A stretch of DNA of 49,715 nt, from sequence record MZ501085; one strand, 5' to 3'. Both the position numbers and the translations under genes were made by a program. This DNA comes from Escherichia phage JohannLBurckhardt. Under the pieces are notes generated by a model. The model was given only the letters and a program-made list of their open reading frames with translations, was not told the DNA's origin and did no database searches. Shown here in pieces: positions 19,767 through 41,056 of the stretch; within the stretch, counting starts at the first letter, position 1; each line of letters opens with the position of its first letter.

Positions 19767-19793
19767 GGGAGCCTTTCGGCTCCCTCTTTTTTT
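19767..19793 (+). terminator. rho-independent terminator
   Basis: AGGGAGCC-tttc-GGCTCCCT followed by 8 T. Confidence 0.85.
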
Positions 19794-20124
19794 ACATCAA
19801 TTTGTTGTGGTCTACAGGGGTTCTGTTTGTTTGCTTAGTGATCATATCGAGCTTGTATTCATCGCCGCGATTCCACTCGAAGCGAAGGGTATACGTGTTA
19901 GCGTCACCGTAACACATTACGTGCTTGAATTTGCGCAAGTGCTTGTCAAAGATCACGTTTGTGCTCTCCTCAATCTTCACCGTTCGATCCGAGCAGTTTA
20001 CAACGGCGACGGTTGAGCCAGTAAGAGACATTCTGGAAGCGTCAACCGGATAGCCGATATTAACGTTCAAAGCCATAGCGTTTAAAGGTGCTACAAGAGC
20101 CATAGCGAGCATGATTTTTTTCAT
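19792..20124 (-). CDS. secreted/periplasmic protein with signal peptide; candidate superinfection-exclusion (Cor/Llp-like) protein
   Basis: 110 aa from ATG 20124 (RBS GAGGA); N-terminus MKKIMLAMALVAPLNAMA is a signal peptide; sits directly downstream of gene J on the opposite strand with its own promoter motif. Confidence 0.45.
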   Translation of the reverse strand: MKKIMLAMALVAPLNAMALNVNIGYPVDASRMSLTGSTVAVVNCSDRTVKIEESTNVIFDKHLRKFKHVMCYGDANTYTLRFEWNRGDEYKLDMITKQTNRTPVDHNKLM

Positions 20125-20155
20125 TGGTATTTCCTCGATTCGTTGATTTGAATTG

Positions 20156-20199
20156 ATTATAGACACCAATCAGGACGGATGTTTAGCAATTCGTGCTAT
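20156..20199 (-). promoter_or_regulatory. palindrome-type promoter element (site m)
   Basis: On - strand: TAGCA-cgaat-TGCTA, 22 nt, TATAAT; TAA stop of upstream gene abuts motif; leader has CAACGAA. Confidence 0.55.
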
Positions 20200-20849
20200 T
20201 AGTTCCATCCGAGGAATTTAGCCATTGGGATCTTAAAGTTTCCGCGCCCGTTAAAGATATCGTTAAAACCTCGCTGATTTCGCTTTATCCACGTTGTCTG
20301 CAATTCCGAGCCAGTCCAGCGCATTAGGTTTCCAGAATATCCGCTAACCACTCCGTCGTCGCTGATTTCACCCACGCACGACTCCCACAGAAAGAATGGG
20401 TTGTAACCAGGGTAAACGCTCGCAATGTTACCCTCAAGAGGCCAGTTTCCGGCAACCTCAAGGAATCCAGTAACGCGAGGCATTGAAGCAGCGCCAACGG
20501 CAGACCAGATCAATTGACCCGAACCGTCGAAAACGTCAAGCACTCCAGATGGAAAGTTTGCGTTTCTCGTTGTCCTGATAACGCGTATTGAGTTGGGGAG
20601 AAATAAGTTATCTCCAGGGAATCCCCAAGCGCCGTTAAAAAGGAATTGCACCCAATGCAAGTATCCATCCTGCTTCCAGTAGTTTTGGTTTAGCGATGCC
20701 AGCGAGCTAACATTTCCAAACGGGGTGTTTAGATTGTAATCGCCAGTGTTTAAGTATGTTGGGGTGTACGACGAATGATAGATCGTGTGTTTCTGATCTG
20801 AATTAATCATCATCGCGCCAGAGTTATTGTATACCTCAAAACCAGGCAT
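20199..20849 (-). CDS. hypothetical protein (Asn/Gly/Tyr-rich), paralog of 20859..21158
   Basis: 216 aa; RBS GGAGGT; contains two copies of the SG(L/V)xxxDG(A/S)G(N/Q)LI module found at the N-terminus of the neighbouring ORF. Confidence 0.6.
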   Translation of the reverse strand: MPGFEVYNNSGAMMINSDQKHTIYHSSYTPTYLNTGDYNLNTPFGNVSSLASLNQNYWKQDGYLHWVQFLFNGAWGFPGDNLFLPNSIRVIRTTRNANFPSGVLDVFDGSGQLIWSAVGAASMPRVTGFLEVAGNWPLEGNIASVYPGYNPFFLWESCVGEISDDGVVSGYSGNLMRWTGSELQTTWIKRNQRGFNDIFNGRGNFKIPMAKFLGWN

Positions 20850-20858
20850 ATTACCTCC

Positions 20859-21158
20859 CTAATTAAATTTATAAACTTCAATATCCATAACAACATCGCT
20901 AAACGGGTTGCTGGTTGGTAGATATATCACATCAACCGCACCGTCCCGCGTAACGCACGCGTAAGAGCTTCCTATGTAGGCGTTAGACCACTTTATAGCG
21001 GCAAACGAGTTGTAGCCGTTTATACCCCCAACGGCAAACGAAACGATCGCGGTTGTTCGAGGGAATACTATTTGCTGGCGATGCACAAAACGAGTGCTGA
21101 AGTCGCCCAGGTCAACAATCAGATTCCCCGCCCCATCCCACGCTTGAAGACCAGACAT
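20859..21158 (-). CDS. hypothetical protein
   Basis: 99 aa; RBS GAGGTGG; first gene of - strand operon transcribed from the AT-rich region. Confidence 0.6.
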   Translation of the reverse strand: MSGLQAWDGAGNLIVDLGDFSTRFVHRQQIVFPRTTAIVSFAVGGINGYNSFAAIKWSNAYIGSSYACVTRDGAVDVIYLPTSNPFSDVVMDIEVYKFN

Positions 21159-23830: not shown

Positions 23831-24253
23831 ATGCACATTATCACCGGAGAAATTCGAAAAGAGCCTCGAATCAAGCAGACTCAAAACGGCACTCTATACG
23901 TTGTTGAGTTATCAGAGCGCTATAAAGATCGAGAAGGTAACGCTCAATACACGAACTACACGTTTTTCTTTAATGCTCGCGCCGGATCTGAGGGAATGAA
24001 AAACTGGTATGATGAAGCGTTCCAGGTTGGCAAGGTAATCTCTGTTTCTTGCGAAACGCTAAAGGCTGAATTGCGAGAGTATGAGGGCAAGACGTATGTC
24101 ACCATGCAAGCGGCAGACTTCCCGAAACTGCTGTTTAGCCAGCGCGGAGGCGCAGCGCCACAACAGCAAAGCAAACCGCGACAGCAAGCGCAGAGCCAAC
24201 CACGGCAGAGCCAAGAGCCGCCGATTGACTTTGACGACGATATCCCATTCTAA
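23831..24253 (+). CDS. ssb: single-stranded DNA-binding protein
   Basis: 140 aa; Gln/Pro-rich linker and acidic C-terminal tail DFDDDIPF characteristic of SSB. Confidence 0.85.
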   Translation: MHIITGEIRKEPRIKQTQNGTLYVVELSERYKDREGNAQYTNYTFFFNARAGSEGMKNWYDEAFQVGKVISVSCETLKAELREYEGKTYVTMQAADFPKLLFSQRGGAAPQQQSKPRQQAQSQPRQSQEPPIDFDDDIPF

Positions 24254-24283
24254 AAAGAAACCCCGCGATTGCGGGGTTTTTTG
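24252..24283. terminator. bidirectional rho-independent terminator
   Basis: A tract, CCCCGC-gatt-GCGGGG, T tract; shared by ssb (+) and the tail fibre gene (-). Confidence 0.85.
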
Positions 24284-26767
24284 TTACTTCTCAATAAGTT
24301 TTGAAATCATAGCTTTCAACTCCTCAACCTCAGCTTTAAGGTTGTCAATCTCCTCCTGCTGTTTTTCCACGATTCCTCCGATGTAGCGAGTCGCAAGCGC
24401 CGTGTCAATCATGATAACGTTGTTATCAAGCCCAAGAGTATCATCCTTGTAATCAATGATAACTGGCTTGTCTCCTTCCTTGCCATCATTATTGTCAATA
24501 ACCGGAGCGCCTGGAATGATTCGCACATATTCAGGATCGATCTCGTACAGGTCTTGCGCAATAACTCCACGACGCACGCGATTGTACTTATCAGATTTGT
24601 ACACAAACGTTGACGGCTTGAACTGCATGATGTTGTCAAATGACGCCTTACCATCATCATATTCAATATCCTTTTTCAAATCCCTGTCAGACGTTGCCAC
24701 GCGCTGAAACTCAAAGTTACCACCCCAAACGCTGTTAGTATCCCAGCATGTTATTTGGCCTGAAACGTGGAACTCAAATCCACGATGCCATGATTCATCA
24801 CCTTGCATATGGATAGCTGCGCGAGGCCATGAACTAGTGCCGCCAGATATTGCTCCAAGAGAGTAGCGCAAACGGTATCCACCAGAGCTGTAACTGCCCC
24901 CAGCAACAACCGGAGAATAGCCAGCATCATTTCCACCTACTGAGTCGGCGTAGAATGGCGCACCCATGTACTCACCATCCACAGACCAGGCGCCTTGTAT
25001 GCACTGACCTTTGAATCCGCGTTGGGCTGTGATGTGACCACCATAAGAGTTGTTGAAATCAAAATACTTCCAATCCGTACCACTATTGTTAACACCAAGT
25101 CTAACCGTTGAGATATCCGTTCCAGATCCGCGAATTGCTCCAAACTGCCAGTAACCGTTATACCAGTTACCTTGCAGGAGGTTAATCCACGAACCCGCGT
25201 TACCATCTCCAGGCACGTTTTGCAGCATAATGTTTTTATTGCCGCCGTCAGTTGTTATAACCCCAACAGCCTTACCTTGCGCAGCCCAAACATCACCGTT
25301 AGATCTCAGCAGACCAGCGCGAGCAGTGCCAGCAACGAGAATCTCCTGAAGTCCAGACATAGAACCATCTTCATTTATCTGAACATAGTTGTTTTTGCCA
25401 TTTCCAGACGTGTGGATTGTTGTCTTGCAGATCCCGCCCTGAACCTCACTATAAATCCTTGATTGACTAACGCGCGCACCGGAGGAATTTAGGTTGTCAC
25501 TAATTAATATCCCGCCGTTTGCGCCGTTCAATTGCTTACTAGTGATTTGAGCGAATGTTACAGCCTGACGTTCCCCAAGACCGAAGTTATCACGAGCGCC
25601 AGCAACATCCGTTGCACCAGTTCCACCTGATGAAATAGGGATTGGAACAGTTTGCCCGTCTTTAGTCTGCCACACGAAAAGACCGTCATTACCCAAAACC
25701 AAGCGGTGCGACAAATCAGGCGATGAAAGCAAGCTATTGCCATATGCGCTGTCTATCCACCCCAAACCCAAGTTATTAACAGCAGAGCGGCGATCAGCTA
25801 CGTCTGAAAGGTTAGCGTCCTTTCGCATTAGGTTAGTAGCGTCAAGCTGATCAGCCAAATCCGCTGCGCGTTCTGCATCGCTTTTTGCGCTTGCTGCTGA
25901 CTGCGCTGCTGCGTCTTTGCTTGCGTTCGCTTCATTTCTTGCGTTAGTTGAGATAGCCGCCGCCGCCTGAGACTCATTTTTTGATGCGTCAGAAGCCGCT
26001 GCGCTTGCCGCCGCGTTTATCTCGCTTTGTTTCGACGCGCTCTCACTTGCCGCCGCCGCGCTAGCTGATGCGCTTGCGCTCTTGCTATGCTCGAATGCAT
26101 TTCGCTCAGATTGCAGGGTGTTTGCTTCGCTTGCTGCTGCCGCATTCTTTGACGCCAGAGCCGCCTGATCGTGCGCTGCTGCTGAGTTTGCGCTGTTTTC
26201 TGCCGCCTCTCTGTAAGCGTTGGCGTTACTCTCGCTAACGTGAGCCGCTTGTGCGCTTTGACCTGCTGCGCTCTCGCTTGCTGCTGCTGCGCCAGCCGAT
26301 GCGCTTGCGCTCTGGCTATGCGCGAATGCGTTTTTTTCGGACTGCAAAGCATTTGCAGCGCTACCCGCTGCCGCTGCTGCGTTATCTTTCACTCCAGCGT
26401 CGATTGCCTCTAGCTTTTCCCAATCGAAATCTTTCAGGAATTCAATGAATCCCTCGATCATGCTTTCCTTGCCCTGGTAATAGCGCAGGGTTTCAGCTAC
26501 ATCCTGAGCCAAACCGTCAACAGTGATTGAGTCATGCAGCAGGATCACATAGTCGACCTGAGGAACGACAGCGCCGCCAGTTGAGGTGGCACGCAGTGAG
26601 GTATCATTTATGATCTCGCTAATTGTTGCATACGCAACCGGATTGGTTGCAAACACAATGGTTGCGCCTGGTCGAATAAGCGTCAACGCCGTTTTCCAGT
26701 TTGTGCCGTATCCGGTGATATATCCGTCAGCGTCCATTGACGCTTGACCCTTGCGGTAAATAGCCAT
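24284..26767 (-). CDS. L-shaped tail fibre protein with C-terminal intramolecular chaperone (peptidase S74-like) domain
   Basis: 827 aa; Ala/Ser-rich coiled region with internal duplication; C-terminal ...TSDRDLKKDIEYDDGKASFDNIMQFKP... resembles the autoproteolytic chaperone domain of T5 pb1 / endosialidase fibres. Confidence 0.8.
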   Translation of the reverse strand: MAIYRKGQASMDADGYITGYGTNWKTALTLIRPGATIVFATNPVAYATISEIINDTSLRATSTGGAVVPQVDYVILLHDSITVDGLAQDVAETLRYYQGKESMIEGFIEFLKDFDWEKLEAIDAGVKDNAAAAAGSAANALQSEKNAFAHSQSASASAGAAAASESAAGQSAQAAHVSESNANAYREAAENSANSAAAHDQAALASKNAAAASEANTLQSERNAFEHSKSASASASAAAASESASKQSEINAAASAAASDASKNESQAAAAISTNARNEANASKDAAAQSAASAKSDAERAADLADQLDATNLMRKDANLSDVADRRSAVNNLGLGWIDSAYGNSLLSSPDLSHRLVLGNDGLFVWQTKDGQTVPIPISSGGTGATDVAGARDNFGLGERQAVTFAQITSKQLNGANGGILISDNLNSSGARVSQSRIYSEVQGGICKTTIHTSGNGKNNYVQINEDGSMSGLQEILVAGTARAGLLRSNGDVWAAQGKAVGVITTDGGNKNIMLQNVPGDGNAGSWINLLQGNWYNGYWQFGAIRGSGTDISTVRLGVNNSGTDWKYFDFNNSYGGHITAQRGFKGQCIQGAWSVDGEYMGAPFYADSVGGNDAGYSPVVAGGSYSSGGYRLRYSLGAISGGTSSWPRAAIHMQGDESWHRGFEFHVSGQITCWDTNSVWGGNFEFQRVATSDRDLKKDIEYDDGKASFDNIMQFKPSTFVYKSDKYNRVRRGVIAQDLYEIDPEYVRIIPGAPVIDNNDGKEGDKPVIIDYKDDTLGLDNNVIMIDTALATRYIGGIVEKQQEEIDNLKAEVEELKAMISKLIEK

Positions 26768-26784
26768 ATGTAAACTCTCCTAAA

Positions 26785-26799
26785 TAGCACGTTTTGTTA
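26785..26799 (-). promoter_or_regulatory. palindrome copy directly upstream of tail fibre RBS
   Basis: + strand TAGCA-cgttt-TGTTA; 18 nt upstream of fibre ATG, so not a canonical motif-promoter. Confidence 0.3.
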
Positions 26800-26833
26800 A
26801 TGACAAGTCGGATTATAGCATTGCGCAAGGCAT

Positions 26834-26856
26834 AAAAAAACCCCGCCGAAGCGGGG
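26834..26856 (-). terminator. rho-independent terminator (reads on - strand)
   Basis: CCCCGC-cgaa-GCGGGG with A tract on + strand (T tract on - strand) just downstream of primase gene. Confidence 0.8.
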
Positions 26857-26871
26857 CAAGAAAGCAATGGT

Positions 26872-27828
26872 TTACCGTGTCGGGAGTAAGGTTTCCGGCT
26901 TGTAAAGCTTTCGCTCTATCCCTTGCCGGAAATTATCGTTAATAGGAAGCATCACGTCAAGCCCTCTCTCCTCTGCGGCAATTATCACGTCCTGATCGGT
27001 TGACTTACACACCACGCGCATTTTTCGATCTCCTTTATATCGGTGCGCAACAATCTCAACGTTATAACTTGAGAAGCAAGCCCACACCTCTTGACCCGTA
27101 GACAGGTGAATGTGTTGCGCGTCCACCCAATCAACACACAGATAGATCGTGTTGTCAGTTTTACCAGTCACCGCAACGGAGCCTCGCGTATAGTCCTTTG
27201 CATAAAAAACACTCTCCCCTAACTCGTCAATCATGAGGATGTTACACATTTCATCATCAAGACCATCGTCATGCACCAGGTAGCACGGAATAGCATGAAT
27301 AAGCGAATCTCCGCCATTCTCCAGCGTTTTCACGCCTACGGAGTACATTTCATCATCTGGTGGCGCGATACCCTCAAAAACGCTTAGATGGGTTTTAATC
27401 ACGCCTTTCGTTCTCTCCATTACTGCAACGCAGTTTTCATGAGGGGCTTGGGATCCGAAAGAGTAACCTGACGCGCGGGAGGCTCGCTTGTTCGCCTTAA
27501 CTATATACTCCTGAGGAACCTTTCCGAGAAAGCGCCCTAAAATGTTGATGCACTCGCTATATGGTTCGCCAGTGAGCTTCATTAGCCAGCCAATGCCGCT
27601 ATCGCTCCCGCAACCGTTGCACACTGCGCCGCCGTCGCCGTCAGTGCTAAGTTTGTCAGTCCAACGGAATCGGTCTTTACCTCCGCAATGGGGGCAGGGC
27701 TGGTGTTTTTTGTTGAAAACGTCATTGCTCAATCCGCAAAGGCTTTGCAACGCATCGCGCCACATCCCTTTCATGTACGGCAAAACGTCCTCTTTCTGAA
27801 ACATCATGTTTGGGTGTACTTCTTGCAT
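26872..27828 (-). CDS. DNA primase-like protein (zinc-ribbon N-terminus)
   Basis: 318 aa from ATG 27828 (RBS GGAG); CPHCGG...CNGCG zinc-binding motif; adjacent to helicase. Confidence 0.55.
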   Translation of the reverse strand: MQEVHPNMMFQKEDVLPYMKGMWRDALQSLCGLSNDVFNKKHQPCPHCGGKDRFRWTDKLSTDGDGGAVCNGCGSDSGIGWLMKLTGEPYSECINILGRFLGKVPQEYIVKANKRASRASGYSFGSQAPHENCVAVMERTKGVIKTHLSVFEGIAPPDDEMYSVGVKTLENGGDSLIHAIPCYLVHDDGLDDEMCNILMIDELGESVFYAKDYTRGSVAVTGKTDNTIYLCVDWVDAQHIHLSTGQEVWACFSSYNVEIVAHRYKGDRKMRVVCKSTDQDVIIAAEERGLDVMLPINDNFRQGIERKLYKPETLLPTR

Positions 27829-27841
27829 GATTCGCTCCAAT

Positions 27842-27886: not shown

Positions 27887-28327
27887 TTAGCTATTTGTGC
27901 TGTTTATGAAGTCCGACTCTTTCACCACGCGAAGCATTTCGTATCGGTCGCATTTCGTCGTTAACGCCTTGCCGTTTGAGTCGAATCGCAAATCTGGACG
28001 GCAGAATGAAGAACGATAGCCCTTGCAGCCGTTTCGCTTATAGTCGGCGTGAACCTTTTCGGCTCCAGAAACGGAAATCATTCCGCGCTTGCGCCACTGC
28101 TGTATAACCTGGTGAGTAACCTTTAAGCGCCTTGTCATTTCTGCCTGAGATCCGTAATATTCGCAAACGGCATCCAGGCGAGCACGCAATCCGGCTTTGA
28201 CTTCATCCTTTAGAACGTAGTAGCCTGTTTTGCGCTTGCGCTTTTTCTTGTCTTTACCGCGCTTTACACCGTTGTTGCCATTGATTGTGCGCTTGTCAAT
28301 TTCGCCAGTTGATGCAGCAATTTTCAT
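27887..28327 (-). CDS. HTH DNA-binding protein (Cro/YdaS-like), putative transcriptional regulator
   Basis: 146 aa from ATG 28327 (RBS GGAGGT); basic N-terminus, GSQAEMTRRLKVTHQVIQQWRKRG HTH-like segment. Confidence 0.5.
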   Translation of the reverse strand: MKIAASTGEIDKRTINGNNGVKRGKDKKKRKRKTGYYVLKDEVKAGLRARLDAVCEYYGSQAEMTRRLKVTHQVIQQWRKRGMISVSGAEKVHADYKRNGCKGYRSSFCRPDLRFDSNGKALTTKCDRYEMLRVVKESDFINSTNS

Positions 28328-28340
28328 ATTAAACCTCCGA

Positions 28341-28383
28341 TAGCACTTTTTGCTAAAAACACTCAAAACGTATGCGCTATTAT
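28341..28383 (+). promoter_or_regulatory. palindrome-type promoter element (site c)
   Basis: TAGCA-ctttt-TGCTA, 22 nt, TATTAT; 33 nt upstream of helicase ATG; divergent from HTH gene. Confidence 0.6.
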
Positions 28384-28415
28384 ACATTCAATCGGTTAAC
28401 GAATAAAGGTTAAAA

Positions 28416-39980: not shown

Positions 39981-40012
39981 TTTTGATTCCTCAGTTTCGT
40001 TTTGTTGAGGCA

Positions 40013-40055
40013 ATGATACCGCATCGCATCTGACTGGTTTTAACAAAAAGTGCTA
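40013..40055 (-). promoter_or_regulatory. palindrome-type promoter element (site q)
   Basis: On - strand TAGCA-ctttt-TGTTA, 22 nt, TATCAT; leader CAACAAAACGAAACTGAGGAA. Confidence 0.6.
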
Positions 40056-40334
40056 TCACTTCATCATATGCAGATTGTTAGCGATAAACTTGACAACTTC
40101 ACGCAGTTGCTTTTCGTCAAAGATAGTCGCTGGCAATTCTTCTTTCAAATCCTGGTGCAGATAAACGTTTCCGTGCCAGGCGAGTTTGTCATGCTCGATG
40201 CGATAGCTACACATCCACTCACAATCGTTGTCAGCTTCCCAAATGCACAGAGCGGTGTAGTCGCCCAAATCCTCAACGGTTAACTCAATGCCGCGTTTCT
40301 TTGCCATGTTGAAAGTGGTCTTGCTGATGTTCAT
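40056..40334 (-). CDS. hypothetical protein
   Basis: 92 aa from ATG 40334 (RBS GAGGAAAA). Confidence 0.5.
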   Translation of the reverse strand: MNISKTTFNMAKKRGIELTVEDLGDYTALCIWEADNDCEWMCSYRIEHDKLAWHGNVYLHQDLKEELPATIFDEKQLREVVKFIANNLHMMK

Positions 40335-40365
40335 TTCGTTTTCCTCAGTTCGTTTCGTTGAATGC

Positions 40366-40409
40366 ATTATGACAAATCCTATCCGCTCTTTTTTTAGCAA
40401 AAAGTGCTA
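40366..40409 (-). promoter_or_regulatory. palindrome-type promoter element (site r)
   Basis: On - strand TAGCA-ctttt-TGCTA, 23 nt, CATAAT; leader TTCAACGAAACGAACTGAGGAA. Confidence 0.55.
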
Positions 40410-40424
40410 TTTAATCGGTAGTCA

Positions 40425-40525
40425 GTGATTTTGATGATTGCTTGACCACTTTTGCAATGATGTTTTTGATGTCCGTCAACTTTTGTGTGATTGTGATGAT
40501 TGTTGATGTTTTTTGATGTGATTTG
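40425..40525 (+). repeat. degenerate short tandem repeats (TGATG / TTTTGATG units)
   Basis: gattttgatgattg...caatgatgtttttgatg...gattgtgatgattgttgatgttttttgatgtgatttgaatg in AT-rich noncoding region. Confidence 0.5.
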
Positions 40526-40698
40526 AATGTGGGAATCAGCATGGCCTGGCGGTGTCGTTTTTGCGCTCTCGAAAACTCCGCCCTGTTATCTTCTGTTTGC
40601 ACTCGTTTCCTCTTGTTACCGAAAGTACGGTGGCGTAGTTTGTTCGTGTTTTTCGCGTAGCAGAAACAAAAAAAACTTTTAATTACCCTATAAACAAC

Positions 40699-40737
40699 TA
40701 ATAAAATCAATAGTTTATTTATATATATTATATTTGT
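40699..40737 (+). repeat. AT-rich conserved block, copy 2 (direct repeat with 21344..21384)
   Basis: TAATAAAATCAATAGTTTA identical 19-mer plus similar flanks. Confidence 0.7.
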
Positions 40738-40995
40738 TTTCACTACGTTATACTTGTTCCATATGGTATGGGGTGGTTATGGGATTTTATTATTGGTGGT
40801 ATTGGTTAATTTATAGGCATGTTCCGCTCAGGATGTGTGCGATTCATCATTTCGTTGTGGTTGCTTTGGGTGACATATACATATTTATTATGTCCTCCGA
40901 AAAAACTGTAACGGCTGTAACATGCAAAAAACAGAATTTATAATCATAAAAATCAACAACTTGCGATAAATTTTGTTTTTCGGCTCAAAAAAAAC

Positions 40996-41024
40996 TTGTG
41001 GAAACCGATTGTAACATGCATAAT
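40996..41024 (+). promoter_or_regulatory. candidate sigma70-like promoter for right-hand early operon
   Basis: TTGTGG - 17 nt - CATAAT; leader CACGAAACGAAC then GGAGG and ATG 41057. Confidence 0.4.
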
Positions 41025-41056
41025 GCACCACGAAACGAACAAGCGGAGGTAAAACT

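Follow-up and report, generated by a model that had tools for sequence, protein, structure and literature searches.

The window analysed here—the 49,715 nt of sequence record MZ501085, from Escherichia phage JohannLBurckhardt—is a Drexlerviridae genome (Tempevirinae, Henuseptimavirus-like). On its minus strand, an open reading frame at 24284–26767 starts with ATG and encodes a precursor of 827 aa and 87.2 kDa. It is flanked by ssb (23831–24253, plus strand; phrog_44, E 3.8e-26) and by the primase gene (26872–27840, minus strand; phrog_510, E 8.8e-106, and Pfam Zn_Ribbon_Prim). The protein matches 15 tail-fibre PHROGs, and both the gene and its place between ssb and primase are as a sequence-only reading of this stretch had described them. 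The same reading had called the gene antisense and far from the main tail operon, which holds in a relative sense: it runs against ssb and the structural genes but with the adjoining primase and regulator genes, and it lies only about 4.5 kb from the end (19759) of the J-like central fibre gene. A separate locus at 19792–21158 adjoins the J-like gene. Rfam and tRNA scans of the entire window returned no matches. Alternative-frame reading frames overlapping the Ala/Ser-rich part of the gene (e.g., 26017–26352, minus strand, 111 aa), for which there is no coding evidence, were taken as artefacts of GC-rich, repetitive codons.

Transcription signals

The gene is bracketed by terminators, both of which are supported by folding. 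Downstream, ssb and the fibre gene converge on a bidirectional intrinsic terminator that both use (24255–24282), a GC-rich stem of 12 bp that has a T-run on either strand. Its folding energies are −19.0 and −16.9 kcal/mol, a stability reached by 0 of 200 shuffles, and it is kept in IsaakIselin, Samwise, and T1, whose record annotates terminators there. Upstream, the minus-strand terminator after the primase gene (26833–26857, comprising a hairpin at 26840–26857 and its T-run) consists of a 7-bp GC stem, a UUCG loop, and U7 (GCCCCGC-UUCG-GCGGGGU; −15.1 kcal/mol, with 3 of 200 shuffles equally stable). This element is identical in IsaakIselin and Samwise, whereas T1 bears a terminator of different sequence at the equivalent place.

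Past the upstream terminator and ahead of the fibre ATG, a sigma-70 consensus scan listed no promoter. By eye, a candidate extended −10 element, TGcTATAAT (26812–26820, minus strand), can be read in this region—missing from the scan because its −35 is weak. The intergenic region that holds it is identical in IsaakIselin and Samwise, and at the corresponding position T1 shows TTGCAA-17-TAAAAT together with an upstream TG; it is this positional conservation that suggests the element as the fibre promoter. The ribosome-binding site AGGAGA (26776–26781, minus strand) lies 8 nt upstream of the ATG, and its GGAG core is kept in IsaakIselin and Samwise. The fibre gene would form a transcription unit of its own, in the order terminator, predicted promoter, ribosome-binding site, gene, and bidirectional terminator.

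Modules of the fibre protein

The N-terminal domain, aa 1 to ~120 (26408–26767, minus strand), is conserved across Drexlerviridae fibres and tailspikes, including T1 ST26 and the IsaakIselin fibre, and the variable remainder of the protein follows it. AF2 models it as a small β domain (aa 6–76) with short helices, and it probably docks the fibre to the tail. Residues 1–171 align at E ~1e-45 with the N-terminal parts of Webervirus depolymerases (7VYV, 7VZ3, and 7LZJ). The RAD2 homologue, DpK2, has been immunogold-localised to distal tail appendages (PMC8552709), and by analogy the window fibre might be a side fibre located at the tip of the tail.

The anchor passes into an Ala/Ser-rich heptad coiled-coil rod, aa 117–307 (25847–26419, minus strand), which AF2 predicts as a single continuous helix with pLDDT values up to 93. 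Its hydrophobic residues recur with a period of 7.04 residues, its composition is 39% Ala and 18% Ser over aa 121–310—the Ala/Ser-rich region noticed earlier—and its length is ~28 nm if fully helical. Within the rod, a stretch of 121 nt occurs twice on the minus strand: copy 1 (26254–26374, ~aa 132–171) contains LQSEKNAF, and copy 2 (26023–26143, ~aa 209–248), 231 nt downstream of copy 1, contains LQSERNAF. The copies are 76% identical at the DNA level over the 121 nt, and their offset equals 77 aa or 11 heptads, corresponding to a reach of ~11 nm. For the protein core, aa 131–170 against aa 208–247, 30 of 39 residues are identical (z=15.4 against shuffles), whereas the remaining parts of the unit, aa 171–207 against aa 248–290, stay at the compositional background of the shuffles (z=0.0). 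Tandem Repeats Finder did not report the 231-nt repeat and listed only a 15-nt low-complexity array at 26246–26284. What had been read as a tandem duplication of ~75 aa is hence narrowed to a 40-aa core repeated at a 77-aa period; the copies of this internal repeat do not form a contiguous tandem array of high identity.

Among relatives, this repeat is present in both copies in N5822, P0002, P0021, P0041, P0057, and P0092, in a single copy in Samwise and P0003, and absent from IsaakIselin, P0005, P0009, and P0035, where P0005 fills the same 199-residue span with unrelated Ala/Ser sequence. The rod indels against relatives measure 7, 105, 112, and 119 aa, each divisible by 7: the window fibre's rod is 112 aa longer than that of Samwise and 105+7 aa longer than that of IsaakIselin. 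The rod would therefore be a heptad coiled coil whose length varies among relatives by whole heptads, and, given these differences and the 77-aa repeat offset, the reach of the fibre may be tunable. We put forward only tentatively, as a possible rather than a probable course of events, that the rod is a length-adjustable spacer, evolving as blocks of whole heptads are duplicated and deleted, whose reach is possibly tuned to the thickness of the host O-antigen or capsule independently of the receptor-binding tip.

The distal region, aa 347–692 (24692–25729, minus strand; phrog_5481), is β-rich and presumed to bind the receptor. Together with the C-terminal domain (aa 347–827), it is 51% identical (E 1e-164) to the C-terminal portion of an LtfA-type fibre, 1116 aa in full length, from Tequintavirus NBEco001. 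The distal region matches 296 phage records, many of them T5-like, and its motif GGTGAxDxxGARxNFGLG (aa 380–398) matches a “putative tail fiber” in the PDB, 7z47. The AF2 monomer of aa 311–827 consists mostly of strands, at low confidence (mean pLDDT 59.7), and Foldseek against the PDB with this model gave no match at E≤0.001. With such pLDDT values, its top matches (T4 gp34, sialidases) are not trustworthy as evidence for a fold, and an intertwined trimer calls for multimer prediction.

The last 135 aa of the fibre, aa 693–827 (24287–24691, minus strand; 15.4 kDa), form an intramolecular chaperone/Peptidase S74 domain. As the sequence-only reading had supposed, there is an S74-like hit: Pfam PF13884 matches aa 693–748 with E 2.5e-13 and 50.6 bits against a cut-off of 22, covering positions 1–57 of the 58 in the model. 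A profile of the domain further matches solved auto-processing domains, namely 8hqz_d (1.4e-11), 6f45 of the S16 fibre (1.8e-6), and MYRF, 7dc3 (4.5e-5). The profile was needed for the latter two, as single-sequence phmmer with the last 151 aa against the PDB found only 8hqz_d and chance matches to Na/Ca exchanger domains. The SDRDLK-like site recognised earlier is present as SDRDLK at aa 693–698 (24674–24691, minus strand), with Ser693 and Lys698 as predicted catalytic residues and Thr692–Ser693 as predicted scissile bond. In domain alignments of 27 and 14 sequences, the Ser is nearly invariant and the Lys invariant. T5 pb1 shows the same S-x4-K spacing in Ser1264/Lys1269 and is cleaved at Thr1263–Ser1264 (PMC4690869). 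By this analogy, the C-terminal domain of the window fibre probably cleaves itself off, for which the predicted masses are 71.8 kDa for the mature fibre and 15.4 kDa for the fragment. A terminal helix, aa 782–826 (model residues 472–516), appears in the AF2 monomer with a pLDDT of only 43–75.

Family placement and receptor use

The gene order ssb(+)/fibre(−)/primase(−)/regulator(−)/helicase(+) recurs in IsaakIselin, Samwise, and T1, where the syntenic gene is annotated as “lateral tail fiber protein” (IsaakIselin) or “tail fiber protein” (Samwise and T1). For Drexlerviridae, Maffei et al. (2021) place the lateral tail fibre (LTF) locus between the recombination and the primase/helicase genes and describe it as hypervariable, with only the 5′ gene end conserved (PMC8594841, S1C Fig legend); the window fibre gene likewise has recombination genes (exonuclease, Erf, ssb) on one side and the primase/helicase genes on the other. 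We take it, with a probability of roughly 0.9, to be the canonical LTF gene of a T1-family siphovirus (Drexlerviridae, Henuseptimavirus-like), located at the family-wide locus as its own transcription unit.

Such a fibre would most likely be a homotrimer—by analogy with related fibres—of four modules: anchor, rod, distal region, and chaperone. The chaperone (aa 693–827) may nucleate the folding of the trimer and then remove itself via the Ser693/Lys698 dyad at Thr692–Ser693, leaving the mature fibre of 71.8 kDa. For the distal region (aa 347–692), the most likely primary receptor is a surface glycan, O-antigen or capsule, bound reversibly; recognition of the terminal protein receptor would fall to the separate locus that follows the J-like gene. 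That a glycan serves as receptor of the window fibre is suggested by analogy; Maffei et al. (PMC8594841) note that O-antigen use by the LTFs of Drexlerviridae “has never been directly demonstrated”. For DT57C LtfA, the determinant of host specificity lies in the divergent C-terminal part (PMC4728585).

The homology of the N-terminal 171 aa to the K2 capsule depolymerases 7VYV and 7LZJ raises the alternative that the fibre is an enzymatic tailspike whose distal region degrades capsule or O-antigen, like the Webervirus proteins with which it shares its N-terminus. Klebsiella and Enterobacter phages are among its closest relatives, and sialidase and glycosidase folds appear among the weak matches from Foldseek, though none of these reaches E≤0.001 and all stem from the low-confidence model. 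However, the homology to the depolymerases ends at aa 171, Pfam finds S74 only and no hydrolase, lyase, or β-helix domain, and the distal half is homologous to T5-like LtfA-type fibres. An enzymatic role hence appears improbable.

Nor do we attach much credence to the idea that this is the essential terminal receptor-binding protein, which triggers DNA ejection, instead of an accessory fibre for the primary receptor. The gene is indeed the largest variable adhesin-like gene of the genome, and work on Cronobacter phages traced host-range differences between close Drexlerviridae to this fibre (PMC12090712). Against this, the allelic variants that were matched with terminal receptor specificity in Drexlerviridae are those of the locus immediately following the J-like gene (PMC8594841), a locus present here at 19792–21158, and in the related T5 system infection of rough strains does not require the LTFs (PMC8594841).

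An accessory LTF remains our reading of the gene; its interior is strongly divergent between close relatives, and the layout of the locus is constant in IsaakIselin, Samwise, and T1. Nucleotide identity to IsaakIselin amounts to 97% upstream of the gene and 85–90% in its first ~250 nt, drops to ~42–50% between about 26370 and about 24348, and recovers to 72–77% over the last fibre codons, the terminator, and the end of ssb. Identity stays high through the upstream terminator and collapses only after the anchor; this profile places the 5′ exchange boundary inside the gene, at ~aa 120–135, and not at the terminator, as had been supposed. The supposition of a mosaic host-range determinant, on the other hand, is supported by the PHROG matches, the identity profile, and the LtfA-type distal module. 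Since T1, IsaakIselin, and Samwise share position and orientation, the arrangement appears ancestral to the family, and this shared layout together with the published locus description (PMC8594841) argues that the gene is not an inverted or displaced cassette; the strand inversion is not supported as a mark of mobility. A host-range cassette that was recently acquired or inverted within the replication region and is exchanged at the terminators on either side would fit the convergence with ssb, the two similar GC-rich hairpins at its flanks, and a gene interior in which close relatives differ far more than they do in the flanks, but is very improbable given the synteny from T1 (Tunavirinae) to Tempevirinae relatives, the co-orientation with primase and regulator, the onset of divergence at ~aa 120–135 inside the gene, and a GC content of 0.485–0.528 across it that resembles the rest of the genome—on which ground a horizontally acquired island was likewise rejected.

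For annotation, the gene can be labelled as lateral tail fibre with a C-terminal chaperone predicted to be self-cleaving, at Thr692–Ser693, with little import beyond this. For phage engineering, the locus offers a natural swap boundary after the anchor (~aa 120–135), a rod whose length changes by whole heptads, and a distal module that travels together with its chaperone as a unit between T1-like and T5-like phages.

Comparison with known systems

The sequence-only reading had likened the C-terminus to T5 pb1 and to endosialidase fibres. PDB searches by sequence and profile returned no chain named pb1, the PDB sequence searches returned none named endosialidase, and the sequence relationship is to LtfA-type fibres: NBEco001 gp100 shares the distal region and chaperone with the window fibre, the DT57C LtfA-like chain 8hqz_d is matched by the chaperone profile, and the SDRD(L/I)K cleavage motif is held in common. 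The similarity does not extend to the N-terminal attachment domain and proximal shaft of the NBEco001 fibre, for which there is no significant N-terminal alignment. T5-like fibres attach via a collar protein encoded by a neighbouring gene—which the NBEco001 LTF gene adjoins—whereas no such gene lies beside the window fibre, and no pb1-type collar-attachment domain was found at its N-terminus, which is the Drexlerviridae anchor instead. With the wider S74 family (endosialidase K1F, T5 pb1, S16 gp37, and MYRF), the window fibre has in common the Ser-x4-Lys dyad at the start of the domain and the C-terminal position after a fibre domain; a terminal helix is predicted here at low confidence.

The Webervirus depolymerases DpK2 (RAD2, 7LZJ) and Depo32 (GH-K3, 7VYV) belong to the same phage family, and their homologous N-terminal 171 aa comprise the anchor and the start of a triple-helix bundle. 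Their C-terminal parts are β-helix depolymerases, whereas the window fibre continues into a long rod, a T5-like distal domain, and the S74 chaperone.

The closest counterparts are the Drexlerviridae LTFs, T1 ST26, IsaakIselin bas10_0031, and Samwise CAJ1039020, which occupy the same locus in the same orientation, with the same neighbours and the same arrangement of terminator, predicted promoter, and terminator, and which share the N-terminal anchor and the coiled-coil rod. They differ in how far this likeness reaches: the Samwise fibre is 84% identical overall, the IsaakIselin fibre ends in an S74 domain as well but carries a different distal module, and T1 ST26, also with a different distal module, loses similarity at ~aa 460, with no S74 match in that comparison. 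The Drexlerviridae fibre gp28 of CRES7/9 shows the same coiled-coil and auto-processing architecture (PMC12090712). A lateral tail fibre gene with a C-terminal folding domain predicted to cleave itself is thus of an already well described kind.

Fibre locus and expression signals

The 827-aa minus-strand ORF (24284-26767) encodes a tail fibre, as the sequence-only reading held—it has tail-fibre homologues and annotated genes at the syntenic position. By megablast, the window belongs to the genus Henuseptimavirus (Drexlerviridae, Tempevirinae), and over the central 24 kb its nearest relatives are Klebsiella phage Samwise (93% identity), Enterobacter phage N5822, and Escherichia phage IsaakIselin (= Bas10). 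Downstream, ssb (23831-24253, plus strand; phrog_44, E 3.8e-26) converges with the fibre gene. Upstream lie the primase (26872-27840, minus; phrog_510, E 8.8e-106; Pfam Zn_Ribbon_Prim) and a transcriptional regulator (27887-28387, minus), beyond which the helicase is encoded on the strand opposite to the fibre.

The two claimed flanking terminators are borne out by the sequence: at 24255-24282, a 12-bp hairpin with T-runs on either strand (-19.0 / -16.9 kcal/mol; 0 of 200 shuffles were equally stable in the folding test), and, upstream of the fibre gene, GCCCCGC-UUCG-GCGGGGU followed by U7 (26857-26833, minus), found by hairpin search and folding. Between the latter and the start codon, an extended -10 element, TGcTATAAT (26820-26812, minus), can be read from the sequence as a candidate promoter of the fibre gene; the consensus promoter scan does not list it, given its weak -35 region, and hence we infer its promoter function. 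A ribosome-binding site, AGGAGA, precedes the ATG by 8 nt. Directly 5' of it, the motif CGTGCTATTTA (26781-26791) is kept in T1 at the equivalent position, unlike the remaining upstream intergenic sequence, which differs between the two phages; the motif may serve in regulation or in the initiation of translation.

The IsaakIselin order—ssb(+), "lateral tail fiber protein"(-), primase(-), regulator(-), helicase(+)—matches the window exactly, and that of Samwise is identical to both. T1, of a different subfamily, carries exonuclease VIII, Erf, ST27, an annotated bidirectional terminator, the opposite-strand tail fibre ST26, and the primase ST24. Its terminator immediately past the primase and its promoter before the fibre gene (TTGCAA-17-TAAAAT with an upstream TG) are positioned as in the window, with different sequences. 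Judged from this shared layout, the "antisense" position is the ancestral arrangement, found family-wide, and, with the terminator and promoter of T1, the fibre gene appears by the same comparison to form its own transcription unit across Drexlerviridae. An explicit description of this lateral tail fibre locus is given by Maffei et al. 2021 (PMC8594841, S1C Fig legend). In the 78,128-bp N5822 record (MW032452)—far longer than the related ~50-kb genomes—fibre, primase, and helicase are each broken into several short CDSs, which suggests that the deposited sequence contains frameshift errors, was misassembled, or represents a concatemer.

Exchange boundaries

Nucleotide identity to IsaakIselin is 97% upstream of the fibre gene, 85-90% in its first ~250 nt, and 69% in the next 150 nt. 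Between about 26370 and about 24348, the sequences are unrelated (about 42-50%), and from about 24347 identity is again 72-77%, through the last fibre codons and the terminator into the end of ssb. The 5' junction is, on this profile, inside the gene, past the anchor domain, in agreement with the published description. The upstream terminator is hence not the 5' exchange border, and the idea of an inverted cassette delimited by terminators fails, given this junction and the same layout in IsaakIselin, Samwise, and T1. At the protein level, the host-range module stands: the N-terminal and C-terminal halves match different PHROGs, the distal part is shared with a T5-like fibre, and these comparisons confirm the gene as a mosaic that determines host range. 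GC across it is unremarkable (0.485-0.528). The lowest-GC kilobase of the window, 40001-41000 (0.384 versus about 0.49 elsewhere), lies at a minus-to-plus gene switch with no ORF of at least 60 aa from about 40944 to 41056, and could be an intergenic region of regulatory or origin type.

Domain architecture and rod length

The N-terminal anchor (aa 1 to about 120) is homologous to Webervirus depolymerases and T1 ST26. In the PDB sequence search, the capsule depolymerases 7VYV, 7VZ3, and 7LZJ of Webervirus align by their N-termini with aa 1-171 (E about 1e-45), and conservation with ST26 extends over the first ~120 aa. AF2 predicts a small β domain (aa 6-76) plus short helices. For the anchor homologue DpK2 of RAD2, the N-terminal domain includes a triple-helix bundle, and immunogold places the protein on distal tail appendages (PMC8552709).

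The rod (aa 117-307) is predicted by AF2 as a single unbroken helix (pLDDT up to 93), and Ala makes up 39% and Ser 18% of aa 121-310. Its hydrophobic residues recur with a period of 7.04 residues and harmonics at 3.5 and 2.33; hence, the rod is a coiled coil built of heptads, which would span about 28 nm if helical along its whole length. Two 121-nt repeat copies, 76% identical and 231 nt apart, lie at 26254-26374 and 26023-26143 (minus; DNA self-comparison). A tandem duplication of about 75 aa had been proposed; against shuffles, aa 131-170 and 208-247 agree at 30 of 39 positions (z=15.4), whereas aa 171-207 and 248-290 are at compositional expectation (z=0.0). What recurs is therefore 40 aa long, with the copies offset by 77 aa, and apart from this extent the original observation was accurate. 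By alignment, the repeat is common to other fibres and not peculiar to JohannLBurckhardt: two copies occur in N5822 and the metagenomic homologues P0002, P0021, P0041, P0057, and P0092, one in Samwise and P0003, and none in IsaakIselin, P0005, P0009, and P0035. The offset equals 11 heptads, and the rod length differences measured against relatives are all multiples of 7—112 aa versus Samwise, 105 and 7 aa versus IsaakIselin, 105 aa versus P0003 and P0009, and 119 aa versus P0035. In P0005, the flanking motifs are 199 residues apart as in the window fibre, with unrelated Ala/Ser sequence between them. Rod length thus varies by register-preserving blocks.

The β-rich distal region (aa 347-692) carries a GGTGAxDxxGARxNFGLG motif, also present in other solved fibres (7z47), and is homologous to a T5-like fibre. 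The AF2 monomer of the distal half is poor (pLDDT 59.7), and Foldseek with this model gave no PDB match at E<=0.001. Many relatives, among them Samwise, P0002, P0005, and P0057, bear an extra module of ~63 aa between two GGTGA...GAR.N(F/L)(G/Q)L copies (…GARVNLQLDRF…GGTGA…), absent from the JohannLBurckhardt fibre at about aa 386 (about 25610); from the alignments, this is a second, independent shaft length polymorphism.

The claimed C-terminal Peptidase_S74 chaperone (aa 693-827) was borne out by Pfam (50.6 bits, cut-off 22), by conserved Ser/Lys residues—among homologues, Lys698 is invariant and Ser693 nearly so—and by profile matches to auto-processing structures (8hqz_d, 1.4e-11; S16 long tail fibre 6f45, 1.8e-6; human MYRF 7dc3, 4.5e-5). 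Predicted cleavage products are 71.8 kDa (mature) and 15.4 kDa. In P0005, a close metagenomic homologue of 891 aa, Cys stands where the fibre has the catalytic Ser693 (ANCDRDLKK versus ATSDRDLKK); this could reflect a sequencing error or a naturally occurring dyad with a Cys nucleophile.

Proposed mechanism and known fibres

By analogy, we infer that three chains would assemble via the chaperone, which would act as folding template for the intertwined distal domain before cleaving itself off and leaving the tip exposed. The anchor would attach the trimer to the tail, and the coiled coil would extend the tip about 28 nm outward. On the precedent of T5-like fibres, and in line with the BASEL analysis, reversible binding of the tip to a surface glycan would provide the primary receptor contact—a role never directly shown for Drexlerviridae lateral tail fibres, according to Maffei et al. 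(PMC8594841). Recognition of the terminal protein receptor would fall to a separate locus beside the J-like gene. There, directly downstream of this central fibre gene, 19792-21158 (minus) holds three small ORFs (125, 216, and 99 aa) matching PHROGs of unknown function and corresponding in position to IsaakIselin bas10_0024-0026; it looks like the locus tied by Maffei et al. to terminal receptor specificity.

The S-x4-K spacing of Ser693/Lys698 equals that of Ser1264/Lys1269 in T5 pb1, where cleavage falls at Thr1263-Ser1264 and is blocked by S1264A (PMC4690869). PDB sequence searches of the fibre returned no chain named pb1 or endosialidase, so the proposed pb1 resemblance is supported only by way of LtfA-type relatives. 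In T5-like DT57C, fibre proteins terminate in pfam13884 domains, and the host-specificity determinant lies in the divergent C-terminal part of LtfA (PMC4728585). Over its last 490 aa, the 1116-aa Tequintavirus NBEco001 fibre, whose gene adjoins that of the collar protein for L-shaped fibre attachment, is 51% identical to aa 347-827 (E 1e-164). Within Drexlerviridae, CRES7/9 gp28 is a published fibre that likewise combines a coiled coil with an auto-processing domain (PMC12090712), and the feature is a typical, already described lateral tail fibre of this family.
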